Shown here: positions 55,634 to 58,542 of the stretch, piece by piece | Numbering within the stretch: position 1 is the stretch's first letter | How the letters are laid out: each line of letters starts with the position of its first letter | NCBI GenBank assembly: GCA_903825245.1 | Contig: CAIJZX010000016.1 | Coordinates: 66,100-130,099 of the forward strand | DNA from: Candidatus Kerfeldbacteria bacterium | GTDB taxonomy: Bacteria; Patescibacteriota; Patescibacteriia; SBBC01; CAIJZX01 | Direction: 5' to 3' | DNA: 64,000 nucleotides | The notes under the pieces: generated by a model | What the model was told of the DNA's origin: nothing | The model's database searches: none | Seen by the model: only the letters and a program-made list of their open reading frames with translations | Position numbers and translations under genes: made by a program

Positions 55634-55736
55634 ACCCAGCACCACAATGGGGACGGCTATGGTCATCAAATTAGGAGATTTAAAAACAAAATACACATTT
55701 TTTGAAAAACACAAATTTTGCATTGTGGTGCTGGGT
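55634..55736. repeat. Perfect 16-bp inverted repeat (ACCCAGCACCACAATG / CATTGTGGTGCTGGGT) around a 71-bp AT-rich spacer
   Basis: Arms at 55634-55649 and 55721-55736 are exact reverse complements. The repeat sits at the left edge of the AT-rich island. Confidence 0.8.
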
Positions 55737-55802
55737 CAAGCTAGCACCACTATGGCTTAATTGAAATGACGTACTAACGATTCCCTTTTTGCTCGGTTAT
55801 GC

Positions 55803-57377
55803 TTATTCCAGCCGATCTTTAAAAAACTGCCTTAACTCAGGATCAACAATATATACATATGTTCCTTCAATTCCACGAGTCAAAAGAGTTTTATATATAT
55901 TGATTATATATCGCTCAAGTTCTTTTGGGTCATCTGTTCCACGCTTACCATTCATATCAAAATATTTTTCGACGTGTATTTCAAATTTTCGATATGTCTT
56001 GTTGTAACTAATCTCTGGGCCAATAATCACTCCGGCATAATTTAAATCGTAGCCCTGAACCGTATGAATACAACCCACTTCATTAATAGCGTTTTTAGAA
56101 TTAACCCAGTTTTGATTAACACTATTCCACTTTAATTGCACTCCATCAATTTCAATGTCATGCATACTTGGATCTTTTTTTGAAATCCAAGGCCAAGCAT
56201 ATCCGGAAATAACCCTGCATAACTCCATTTCTCTATCGCGATGCTTAATATCTGACACCATTTTCTCAATATTGTCGTAAATCTGAAAATCATATTTGGT
56301 AAACGTCTCGGGTTTAGCGTCAACAACGTCAAATATATTTTGAATAAAGCTTATGTACTTTTCACCTTCTTCCCCCGCTCCAACTCTCATTTGAGTATTC
56401 AGAGTATACTGCTTAGCTTTTAACCTAGGATAAATTTCGTGATTGATGTCGGATGGTCGAACATGTTGGCCTTTATCGTAAAACAGGATTTGTTGTTTTG
56501 AGGAGCGCAGAATCCAATCAAGTTCGTTGCCATTATTTCCTAACCCAAGTTTTTTATTAGTAATATCAAAACTGGCGTAATTGGTGATATTTTTTCTTTG
56601 ACGTAAACGATGTGCTTCGTCAATAAGCAATAAATCATATTTTTTGTTAACTACTTCGTTCGGCCCAATAACCATGTTCGATTTCAATCCAGTAACATTT
56701 TGGAATACTTTTTTTAGTGTTTGACGCAAAGACGTCATTGGCACTACTAATGCAATTTCAAGATTTTTTGTTTCTTGAATTTCCTTTAGCGATTTCATAA
56801 GAAAGGTCGCCAAAATAGTTTTTCCCGTGCCAGGGCCACCGTTGATGATAAAAGTCGATGATGTACCCATTCGGATTTCTTCGAGTAGTGAAGTAACAAT
56901 CTCTCTTTGATCGTCTGTAAGTGCTTTATACGGTGAATATTTAAATACGTCACTATTCTTTATTTGCACTAAATCTTTCTTTGCTAATGACATTTCTTGT
57001 AACTGAACCCATAGCCGTTCAAACTTAGCCTGGTACTTCTGGCGATCAAAATAATTATGGTTTAACAATCCCTGATTTCCATTCTGCAACGTAAAAAGTC
57101 CATCAGCAGCCATAAACTGTATAAGCGATGATTCTATATCAAGTGTTGCGGATTTATTGTATTCTTCATCGGTTATTATATGCATTCTGTCGAGCTTGCG
57201 ACGCTCGGGATTATCATAGTGTTGATTGCCTCGGTTGAACGCATTTACAGTTTCTCCGATGTAAATCTCTTTTTTATTTTCTAATATATAAACAACGGGC
57301 CAGTTGCGCCCGAAAGTATACGAACGAATTTTCTCGAATTGCTCCTTGCTGAAGGAAAATGTTTCTATCTGAGACAT
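55803..57377 (-). CDS. GIY-YIG nuclease domain fused to a DUF2075/SF1-helicase-like P-loop ATPase
   Basis: N-terminal WPVVYILENKKEIYIGETVNAFNRGNQH (GIY-YIG). Walker A INGGPGTGKT, Walker B LLLIDEAHRL, C-terminal helicase-like region with HTVQGYD. About 33% GC against a window background near 50%. Confidence 0.7.
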   Translation of the reverse strand: MSQIETFSFSKEQFEKIRSYTFGRNWPVVYILENKKEIYIGETVNAFNRGNQHYDNPERRKLDRMHIITDEEYNKSATLDIESSLIQFMAADGLFTLQNGNQGLLNHNYFDRQKYQAKFERLWVQLQEMSLAKKDLVQIKNSDVFKYSPYKALTDDQREIVTSLLEEIRMGTSSTFIINGGPGTGKTILATFLMKSLKEIQETKNLEIALVVPMTSLRQTLKKVFQNVTGLKSNMVIGPNEVVNKKYDLLLIDEAHRLRQRKNITNYASFDITNKKLGLGNNGNELDWILRSSKQQILFYDKGQHVRPSDINHEIYPRLKAKQYTLNTQMRVGAGEEGEKYISFIQNIFDVVDAKPETFTKYDFQIYDNIEKMVSDIKHRDREMELCRVISGYAWPWISKKDPSMHDIEIDGVQLKWNSVNQNWVNSKNAINEVGCIHTVQGYDLNYAGVIIGPEISYNKTYRKFEIHVEKYFDMNGKRGTDDPKELERYIINIYKTLLTRGIEGTYVYIVDPELRQFFKDRLE

Positions 57378-57382
57378 CAGGA

Positions 57383-57769
57383 TTACAGTTCGTTGTACTT
57401 TTTATCACTATCCTTCGCCTTCTCAATAGGATATTTCTTTGCGTTCAATTCCATTTTCTGTTTAAACGCCGATTTAATATCAATACCGAGGTCGTGGCTG
57501 AGGAGCAATACCCAATACAAAACATCACTTAGTTCCTCACCAAGATCTGTTTTATGTTCTTTTAGATATTTTTCTAAATGTTCGTTATTTTTCCACTGAA
57601 AATGTTCTAATACTTCGGTCGCCTCAAGTACTAAAGACAACGCCAAATCCTTCTCGTTATGAAACTGCTTCCAGTTCCGATCGTTTCGAAACTTGAGGAT
57701 AATATCGGTCAGTTCCTGAATATCAGTCATACTGCGTAAAGAACTCGTCGTTCTTTGCCCGTTTGGCAT
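57383..57769 (-). CDS. MazG-like all-alpha nucleoside triphosphate pyrophosphohydrolase
   Basis: EATEVLEHF and ELSDVLYWVLLLSHDLGIDI motifs of the MazG/HisE-like NTP-PPase fold. Ends 5 bp before the downstream ATPase gene on the same strand. AT-rich. Confidence 0.6.
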   Translation of the reverse strand: MPNGQRTTSSLRSMTDIQELTDIILKFRNDRNWKQFHNEKDLALSLVLEATEVLEHFQWKNNEHLEKYLKEHKTDLGEELSDVLYWVLLLSHDLGIDIKSAFKQKMELNAKKYPIEKAKDSDKKYNEL

Positions 57770-57912
57770 TGGTGAGATTGCTGTTAGCCATAAGGAAATG
57801 GTACGCCTTTTTCGCTAAGAAATCAATAAAAACTACTTATTGACAAGCCGATGCTTTTGGTGTATCATTCCTCTACTAAACGTAGGCCGGATATCTCGTA
57901 TGTCCGGCCGGT

Positions 57913-58542
57913 TTATTTGTGCTCAAATTTGAGTTCGTGTTCAAGACGAACGAAGTCTCGAAAATTTGATCCGGCGAACTGCTTAATCTCTCGTGCCGTA
58001 CGCGGCCCACGAGCGAGAACGATAACTTCTTTACCTTGCTGTTGAATGTGTTTCAAGACCGCTAAAAAATCGCCATCTCCGGAAAGCACAAGTACTCGAT
58101 CATAGTCGGGCAAATCGCGCATCATGGCGAAGGTCATGTCAACATCGCAATTCGCCTTTCGTTTTACCGAACCATCGTCTTGATGATAGGTCTTCACTGG
58201 TTTGAGCACGAGATGGTAACCAAACTGTTCAAGCAGTAAGTAAAACCGGACGCGCTGAAGGTGTTTGCCAGCAATCAGTAACTCAGCTTCATTCAAGTTT
58301 TTGCCTTGGCGCTTGATATTGTCGGCGAGATGACGTTCTAGGTCTTGTAACGGTACGGTCTCATAATGAAGATAGTCATTATGAAAGTTATTCGTTTCAA
58401 CGCCACCAAAGTAATAAACCCGCGTAACATCGTACTTCTTTCGTAAATATAGTAGGAGTTTTTTGTAATCGATTTTCCAGCCTAAACTTTTCTCTCCGCC
58501 ATAGAAGAGGTTTGAGGCATCAATATAGACGTAGGTTTTCAT
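57913..58542 (-). CDS. NYN-domain (LabA/DUF88-like, PIN-related) predicted ribonuclease
   Basis: YIDASNL...VLVLSGDGDF acidic motifs of the NYN fold. Confidence 0.6.
   Translation of the reverse strand: MKTYVYIDASNLFYGGEKSLGWKIDYKKLLLYLRKKYDVTRVYYFGGVETNNFHNDYLHYETVPLQDLERHLADNIKRQGKNLNEAELLIAGKHLQRVRFYLLLEQFGYHLVLKPVKTYHQDDGSVKRKANCDVDMTFAMMRDLPDYDRVLVLSGDGDFLAVLKHIQQQGKEVIVLARGPRTAREIKQFAGSNFRDFVRLEHELKFEHK

Follow-up and report, generated by a model that had tools for sequence, protein, structure and literature searches.

Two anti-phage defences with experimental support, Nhi of Staphylococcus epidermidis (SERP2475; bioRxiv 10.1101/776245) and Nhi-like (Millman et al. 2022; bioRxiv 10.1101/2022.05.11.491447), are each encoded by a single gene, the product of which combines a nuclease with a DUF2075 helicase. 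Here we analyse a nuclease-helicase gene in a 64,000-nucleotide (nt) stretch of DNA from Candidatus Kerfeldbacteria bacterium, hereafter the window (GenBank assembly GCA_903825245.1, contig CAIJZX010000016.1, positions 66,100 to 130,099 of the forward strand), together with the gene for a small MazG-like nucleotide pyrophosphohydrolase that precedes it. Like Nhi and Nhi-like, the protein from this two-gene cassette has an N-terminal nuclease followed by a DUF2075 helicase of superfamily 1B (SF1B), and the helicases of the cassette and of Nhi have the structural neighbours Dna2, Dda, and Upf1 in common (bioRxiv 10.1101/776245). However, the nuclease of Nhi is of the PD-(D/E)xK type, whereas that of the cassette is of the GIY-YIG type, and the cassette protein has no full-length match to the Nhi model. 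Furthermore, Nhi and Nhi-like are single-gene systems, whereas the helicase clade of the cassette retains a MazG-like gene in 77 of 78 loci. This linkage is near-obligate for the helicase clade and is not due to chance, and it is likely that the cassette serves in defence.

Small pyrophosphohydrolases of (deoxy)nucleoside triphosphates ((d)NTPs) are encoded beside DNA-targeting nucleases in two other arrangements. MutT/Nudix genes occur next to SauUSI-type nuclease-helicase genes of type IV restriction systems (Bell, Wolf and Koonin 2020; bioRxiv 10.1101/2020.08.06.240630), and HNH genes of 'group 23' are neighbours of genes for MazG (Jablonska et al. 2017; PMC5714182). The cassette shares its general layout with both, but differs from the former in the fold of the pyrophosphohydrolase, which is Nudix there, and from the latter in the nuclease, which is HNH there. 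The MazG-DUF2075 pair is mentioned in neither of the two papers.

A further comparison, on functional grounds, can be made with phage T4. Its gp56 dCTPase hydrolyses the deoxynucleoside triphosphate (dNTP) of a certain base, and its endonuclease II cuts DNA in which that base occurs. As in the cassette, a dNTPase of the MazG superfamily is combined with a GIY-YIG nuclease, and T4 endonuclease II (PDB: 2wsh) is the best solved match of the N-terminus of the cassette nuclease-helicase. However, T4 encodes the two enzymes in separate phage genes that target the cytosine DNA of its host, whereas the cassette is cellular and its nuclease is fused to a helicase. A literature search returned no description of a pair of DUF2075 (or Schlafen) and MazG/PF12643 genes, nor of a MazG-like partner of an anti-phage helicase. 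Nuclease-DUF2075 defences are known; what is new is a probable defence of this Nhi-like kind with a near-obligate dNTP pyrophosphohydrolase partner.

Organization of the cassette

The original prediction placed the MazG-like gene on the minus strand at positions 57383–57769, apparently translationally coupled to the nuclease-helicase gene. An open reading frame (ORF) of this extent is present and encodes 128 amino acids (aa) from the first in-frame ATG (57769). However, nearly all homologues of the protein have 115 aa, and their first residue is aligned to Met14. Additionally, DNA homology to the closest relative of the cassette, locus L172, begins at 57723, just inside the ATG of Met14 (57730). 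Therefore, the coding sequence of the MazG-like protein most likely spans 57383–57730 on the minus strand and encodes 115 aa; the predicted end, with a TAA stop codon at 57385–57383, is retained, whereas the predicted start is corrected.

The nuclease-helicase gene is located at 55803–57377 of the same strand, starts with an ATG at 57377, and encodes a protein of 524 aa with an N-terminal GIY-YIG domain and a DUF2075/SLFN-g3 SF1B helicase. The predicted gap of five base pairs between the two genes can be read in the sequence as the spacer TCCTG (57378–57382, minus strand). The low guanine-cytosine (GC) content that the two genes were said to share is borne out as well: it is 0.368 in the MazG-like gene and 0.359 in the DUF2075 gene, compared to 0.48–0.49 in the flanking glycosyltransferase genes and 0.484 in the whole window.

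Conservation of the gene pair

The pair was followed in two scans. The first was seeded with an alignment of the MazG-like protein and covered GTDB with a single genome for each species; the 80 loci that came closest were kept, most of them from Patescibacteria, and 78 could be assessed. The second was seeded with an alignment of the GIY-YIG/DUF2075 protein and covered metagenome contigs; 80 loci with identities of 45–69% were kept, of which again 78 could be assessed.

In the helicase-seeded scan, the MazG-like gene is directly upstream of the nuclease-helicase gene in 71 of 78 loci and within about 2 kb in 77. Among the remaining loci, five carry it either at a distance of about 1.1 kb on the upstream side or shortly after the nuclease-helicase gene, one has it on the opposite strand, and one has none. 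In the MazG-seeded scan, a nuclease-DUF2075 gene lies immediately downstream in 56 of 78 loci. Nineteen of these partners share the GIY-YIG type of the window, 36 have another N-terminal domain, and one was matched in its helicase region only. The second type of N-terminal domain has about 240 aa, and its PD-(D/E)xK label is assigned at the level of a D...ELK motif and weak NERD/PD-(D/E)xK matches (best E 0.0026). The dependence between the two genes is asymmetric: the helicase clade is almost never without a MazG-like gene, whereas close MazG-like genes occur without the helicase in 22 of 78 loci.

The stop-to-start spacers are short, with a median of 2 nt for the GIY-YIG type (n=90) and 2.5 nt for the PD-(D/E)xK type (n=36), and overlaps of 4 nt are frequent. 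These very short, conserved spacers fit co-transcription and coupled translation of the two genes. The identities of the MazG-like protein and of its partner to the proteins from the window co-vary (Spearman 0.71, n=86). However, the MazG-like protein is far more conserved than its partner and remains 60–76% identical across the swappable nuclease types, GIY-YIG or PD-(D/E)xK/NERD-like. In a tree of the MazG-like sequences, which is poorly resolved owing to their length of 115 aa, the sequences do not segregate by partner type.

Altogether, the pair is adjacent in more than 125 loci across phyla, in genomes as well as metagenome contigs. It is kept in plasmids of cultured Bacillus and Lactiplantibacillus, where the identity of the helicase has fallen to 26–33%, and a gene annotated 'nucleotide pyrophosphohydrolase' is located directly upstream of the DUF2075 gene in B. 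thuringiensis HD-1 pBMB431 and in an L. plantarum plasmid. In some Bacillus loci, HNH, MazG-like, and DUF2075 genes occur together, and in Bacillus sp. PGP15 (locus L164, 2036–6662) a MazG gene with the same annotation stands directly before a GIY-YIG nuclease gene, after which comes the matched DUF2075 gene. The helicase clade was found on only 5 of 2.9 million viral contigs (IMG/VR), so that phages are not the main carriers of the gene pair. The MazG-like gene is adjacent in all five, and in two of them the order is swapped, so that the MazG-like gene follows the helicase gene after about 20 nt (L179:3188–5031 and L180:3520–5363). The adjacency of MazG-like and DUF2075 genes, for which a search of genome neighbourhoods had been proposed, thus recurs in well over 100 other genomes and contigs, and together with the median spacer of 2 nt it supports the idea that the MazG-like gene is a partner of the nuclease-helicase in one functional unit.

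In four of the 78 MazG-seeded loci, the MazG-like gene overlaps by 4 nt with a gene for a protein of 350–370 aa instead of DUF2075 (L004:6345–7442, L011:6348–7397, L019:2588–3697, and L035:6348–7454). The C-terminus of this alternative partner is Hjc/PD-(D/E)xK-like (E=0.0085), whereas the likeness of its N-terminus to EVE/PUA domains is weak and is a lead rather than a result (PDB: 2p5d, E=0.09; Pfam EVE, 0.18, for a protein of 366 aa). An EVE-like domain combined with a PD-(D/E)xK-like domain is the architecture of modification-dependent restriction enzymes.

The MazG-like protein

The MazG-like protein is a single domain of 115 aa, and the identity given to it originally holds: it matches the Pfam family MazG-like (PF12643) with 65.3 bits against a cut-off of 27 (E=5.9e-18, 84 of 85 profile positions covered) and, more weakly, the family MazG (PF03819) with 26.8 bits against a cut-off of 22. 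Its best relative with a solved structure is the archaeal pyrophosphatase 4qgp (E=3e-18, full length). Mouse and human DCTPP1, also named RS21-C6 (PDB: 2a3q, 6sqw), match at E of about 8e-16 over residues 18–128 of the 128-aa ORF. In the PHROGs database, only a generic 'pyrophosphatase' family was matched.

The base and phosphate pocket of DCTPP1 contains the Trp47/Trp73 sandwich and the His38/His51 dyad, which provides selectivity for cytosine (PMC13291643). This active site was mapped onto the MazG-like protein using the PDB alignment, and residues were counted in 155 homologues. The first metal-binding motif, E36-x2-E39-x2-E42 (LEATEVLE; 57605–57625, minus strand), aligns with E63, E66, and E69 of mouse DCTPP1. 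The second motif, E65-E66-x2-D69 (EELSD; 57524–57538, minus strand), which contributes to metal and deoxyribose binding, aligns with DCTPP1 E94, E95, and D98; Glu65, the equivalent of E94, is present. The equivalents of E63, E66, E95, and D98, namely Glu36, Glu39, Glu66, and Asp69, are found in 155 of the 155 homologues, and Glu42 in 154. The metal-binding glutamates of the EExxE type, the loss of which would have spoken against a MazG-like enzyme, are thus aligned and invariant. Several residues of the pocket are conserved as well, with equivalents of Trp47 and Phe50 in 155 homologues, Trp73 and Phe41 in 154, and His51 and Tyr129 in 152. In addition to these residues, the C-terminal KY-x-x-L is shared with DCTPP1 and 4qgp. 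The cassette enzyme differs from DCTPP1 in having Ile, Leu, or Val in place of His38, Tyr in place of Ile101, and Trp in place of Tyr102, and in being a bacterial protein of 115 aa encoded with a nuclease-helicase. Judged from its sequence, the MazG-like protein is a catalytically intact dNTP pyrophosphohydrolase of the DCTPP1 type.

The hydrolysis of alarmones had been proposed as one activity of the enzyme. E. coli MazG, encoded in mazEFG, hydrolyses NTPs and ppGpp, belongs to the same all-alpha NTP-pyrophosphatase superfamily, and is likewise encoded beside a stress or toxin module. However, it consists of about 263 aa with two domains in tandem, and the cassette protein, with its single domain, fails the equivalog model of E. 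coli-type MazG (NCBIfam PRK09562, NF007113; 15.7 bits against a cut-off of 208). Since the characterised proteins nearest to it are DCTPP1 of mouse and human rather than E. coli MazG, the family assignment does not favour an alarmone role. Neither mazE nor mazF was found beside the MazG-like gene of the window, the neighbours of which are a NYN gene and the DUF2075 gene.

The nuclease-helicase protein

The helicase core of the nuclease-helicase comprises residues 153–524 (55806–56921, minus strand) and matches the Pfam family PF09848 (DUF2075, now SLFN-g3 helicase) with 223 bits against a cut-off of 24 (E=7e-66). Its Walker A motif GGPGTGKT (56817–56840, minus strand) and its DEAH motif are invariant in the homologues. 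The AlphaFold (AF2) model of the protein, with a predicted local distance difference test score (pLDDT) of 79, was matched by Foldseek to Dna2, RecD/RecD2, SLFN11, Dda, and Upf1.

The nuclease domain is formed by approximately the first 110 residues (57048–57377, minus strand). The Pfam GIY-YIG model matches it below the threshold (16.7 bits against 22.6). A profile of the N-termini of 23 homologues matches T4 endonuclease II with E=7.5e-4 and, weakly, UvrC (0.08) and I-TevI (0.2). The signature residues Tyr30, Tyr39, Gly41, Arg49, His53, Glu82, and Asn99 are invariant in the homologues, and the domain can be assigned to the GIY-YIG nuclease superfamily. A PADLOC search with the nuclease-helicase gave matches to Nhi (E=3.6e-16) and AbiO (E=3.8e-15), which are partial and cover the first half of the helicase; the match to Nhi spans residues 143–373, corresponding to positions 174–366 of the 470 in the profile.

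In 16 of the MazG-seeded loci, the partner protein ends with a Peptidase_S24 domain. Such domains, including those of L018, L021, L025, L037, L042, and P0123–P0128, have the serine of a GDSM motif, a lysine, and a UmuD-like Cys-Gly site, which suggests that the fused partners may be controlled by RecA*-triggered self-cleavage. The nuclease-helicase of the window has no S24 domain.

Mobility of the cassette

The closest relative of the cassette, L172 (GCA_009885115.1, VFLH01000058.1, 184–4132), has a helicase 90% identical and a MazG-like protein 77% identical to those of the window, and the same 5-nt spacer. It is flanked by another DUF2075 gene and a Fic gene, so that its flanks differ from those in the window. 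The DNA identity of 81% between the two loci is limited to positions 57723–55842 and ends at both gene ends; therefore, the unit of transfer is exactly the MazG-like and nuclease-helicase genes, and the cassette is mobile as a unit. Its low GC content relative to the flanks also speaks for mobility. Copies are found on megaplasmids and occasionally on viral contigs. The order of genes in L172 is DUF2075, MazG, and GIY-DUF2075, and both L172 and L164 have two DUF2075/GIY-YIG genes around one MazG gene, which hints at a tandem duplication or stacking of cassettes.

A Pfam scan of 148 ORFs flanking 74 cassettes identified Fic (7), RadC (5), RhuM (4), Mrr (3), DUF3800 (3), NUDIX (3), the Shedu domain SduA_C (2), zeta toxin (2), and C5 methylase (2); ExoVII is also among the neighbours. 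This content is usual for variable defence or toxin-antitoxin islands. The 148 ORFs are a diverse mix, in which no recurrent third partner family was found.

Proposed function of the cassette

The explanation that we consider best, with somewhat more confidence than doubt, is that the cassette is a mobile, co-transcribed, and tandem-translated two-gene system against invaders, with an 'exclude and destroy' division of labour. The MazG-like and nuclease-helicase genes would be expressed from one transcript and translated in tandem. The nuclease-helicase would most likely unwind and cut invading DNA, as can be expected from its Nhi/Nhi-like architecture. The MazG-like enzyme would most likely hydrolyse a particular dNTP, perhaps a non-canonical one such as a base-modified pyrimidine, to the monophosphate (dNMP) and pyrophosphate. 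Thus, the enzyme would keep the nucleotide out of host DNA and away from the replication of the invader, the DNA of which would be degraded by the nuclease-helicase. Such a system would mirror, on the side of the host, the combination of dCTPase and endonuclease II in phage T4. We infer the substrate and the division of labour as well as the defence role, which is likely and is also suggested by the Nhi-like architecture, the partial PADLOC matches to Nhi and AbiO, the flanking genes, the exchangeable nuclease module, and the other nuclease or restriction-modification genes that adjoin MazG-like genes in loci lacking DUF2075.

The greater conservation of the MazG-like protein compared to its partner and the lack of sorting by nuclease type suggest that it acts on an invariant small molecule and not on a co-evolving protein surface. 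MazG-like genes without DUF2075 adjoin other nuclease or restriction-modification genes, encoding HsdR, type IIG enzymes, or the EVE-like/PD-(D/E)xK protein. Because of the conservation of the MazG-like protein, the asymmetric dependence, and this recurrence beside other DNA nucleases, we favour a role in which the enzyme cleans up or excludes a non-canonical dNTP, coupled to the degradation of invader DNA.

One specific possibility, which we regard as doubtful, is an immune system of 'base-exclusion plus restriction', in which the enzyme destroys a non-canonical dNTP of the phage type, for example a 5-modified analogue of dCTP or dUTP, and the nuclease-helicase destroys DNA containing that base. 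If this were true, the host genome would never acquire the modified base and the phage would be starved of it. The nuclease module could be GIY-YIG, PD-(D/E)xK, or EVE-linked, and the cassette might be viewed as a host-side mirror of T4 gp56 dCTPase and endonuclease II.

Several observations weigh against the exclude-and-destroy explanation. The characterised Nhi works alone and has no known dependence on DNA modification, and no domain that reads modified bases was identified in the nuclease-helicase of the cassette. The PADLOC search with the MazG-like protein returned no defence family at E<=0.01. The equivalent of His38, which reads cytosine in DCTPP1, is Ile, Leu, or Val in 153 of 155 homologues, and most homologues have Tyr and Trp at the positions of Ile101 and Tyr102; because of these changes, the base specificity cannot be read from the sequence. 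Furthermore, 18 of the 78 close MazG-like genes of the MazG-seeded scan have no adjoining DUF2075 gene and are located in other contexts, where motif inspection of the downstream neighbours identified type I HsdR, type IIG, DNA methylase, Fic, and RadC. Conversely, distant DUF2075 genes occur without the partner in Lysinibacillus, L. fermentum, Methanosphaera, Hymenobacter, and Streptomyces. Finally, the S24 domain of the LexA/UmuD type on about 40% of the partner proteins points to control by RecA and DNA damage, which would also fit a function in repair.

It is rather unlikely that the MazG-like enzyme is a nucleotide-depletion effector that drains canonical dNTPs, such as dCTP, upon infection and starves the phage, with the nuclease-helicase being an independent effector or a sensor. 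Depletion of dNTPs by dCTP deaminases and dGTPases, as reported by Tal et al. in 2022, is an established defence strategy and counts in favour of this explanation. The intact active site of the MazG-like protein would permit such an activity, and DCTPP1 homologues hydrolyse dCTP (PMC7162842; PMC13291643). However, the protein of 115 aa has no regulatory or sensor domain by which it could stay off in uninfected cells, and it has no PADLOC match, so that it shows no homology to the catalogued dCTP deaminase and dGTPase defences. Moreover, close MazG-like genes are found alone in ordinary contexts, which suggests that the enzyme does no harm when constitutive, as would rather be expected of a house-cleaning enzyme that acts on a rare substrate.

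The MazG-like protein might instead act as a safeguard, in an antitoxin-like or regulatory manner, that restrains or tunes a potentially self-toxic nuclease-helicase, either by removing a nucleotide that activates the latter or by binding directly to it. This is improbable, although the layout, with a small upstream gene tightly coupled to a larger one, is like that of toxin-antitoxin systems, the asymmetric dependence (77 of 78 helicase loci with MazG, 22 of 78 MazG loci without the helicase) would be expected, and E. coli mazG belongs to the mazEF operon (PMC5714182). The high conservation of the MazG-like protein across partner types and the lack of segregation in its tree argue against a co-evolving inhibitor interface, and the invariant catalytic residues imply that its chemistry matters and not just binding.

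The probability that the cassette is a DNA-repair or SOS module is similarly low. Its nuclease-helicase, with a UvrC/Cho-like GIY-YIG domain, would remove lesions, and the MazG-like enzyme would sanitise damaged dNTPs, as MutT does. The fusion of LexA/UmuD-like S24 domains, with their Ser/Lys dyad and Cys-Gly site, to many partners is in line with such a function, as are RadC, NUDIX, and ExoVII among the neighbours and the role of DCTPP1 as a genome-integrity enzyme. However, a patchy distribution of the kind produced by horizontal transfer, the atypical GC content, variable flanks rich in Fic, Mrr, Shedu, zeta, and RhuM, the copies on megaplasmids and occasional viral contigs, and the defence architecture shared with Nhi and Nhi-like are not what would be expected of a repair module. 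A fortuitous adjacency of an unrelated housekeeping pyrophosphatase, to which the close MazG-like genes in unrelated contexts might point, is effectively refuted by more than 125 independent loci across phyla, spacers of 0–5 nt, and the survival of the pair through a swap of gene order.

Neighbouring gene, repeats and promoter-like sites

A gene for a NYN-domain (LabA-like) ribonuclease is located directly upstream of the MazG-like gene (57913–58542, minus strand; PADLOC NYN model, E=8e-16). It was rejected as a third component of the cassette: it was near the pair in 2 of 160 loci, it lies outside the homology to L172, and its GC content of 0.435 is intermediate.

A perfect 16-nt inverted repeat, ACCCAGCACCACAATG, surrounds a 71-nt AT-rich spacer (55634–55649 and 55721–55736), and a third, degenerate copy follows at 55739–55754. 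All copies fall within the gap of 211 nt that immediately follows the stop codon of the nuclease-helicase gene. The repeat has four matches in the window compared to 0.44 expected, and the RNA fold has an energy of -41.7 kcal/mol (z=-4.2). The arrangement might mark a boundary of the island, serve as an unusual kind of terminator, or represent a small repeat that is mobile. No structured RNA or tRNA was found in the island.

In a scan for promoters and terminators, the counts were at or below chance. The site TTGATT-17-TACCAT upstream of the MazG-like gene (57826–57798) is weak and below the threshold of the scan, and no claim is attached to it. Between the NYN and MazG-like genes, a near-consensus promoter-like site TTGACA-17-TATCAT (11/12; 57840–57868, plus strand) points into a GC-rich hairpin (57885–57909) followed by a T-run, and these elements may give rise to a tiny antisense transcript or form a bidirectional terminator. 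The same TTGACA and TATCAT hexamers also make up a promoter-like site of the NYN gene (58577–58549, minus strand). Shine-Dalgarno-like motifs (GGAG, GAGG, or AGGA at -20 to -4) precede only 5 of the 52 ORFs of at least 150 aa in the window; therefore, the missing motif cannot be used as evidence on coupling. The lineage, judged from the closest relatives, is probably Patescibacteria-like and barely uses Shine-Dalgarno sequences.

Implications

Nuclease-DUF2075 proteins are prokaryotic relatives of the human Schlafen helicases, and catalogues list them as phage defences that consist of one gene. In a large clade of these proteins, a DCTPP1-like partner is hardly ever missing, and the two genes should be cloned, annotated, and tested together. 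The cassette would link the sanitation of the nucleotide pool to DNA-targeting immunity, and it provides a testable biological context for bacterial PF12643 proteins, which are now annotated as 'nucleotide pyrophosphohydrolase' only. It is especially common in Patescibacteria, also known as the candidate phyla radiation (CPR), the defence repertoire of which is poorly known.

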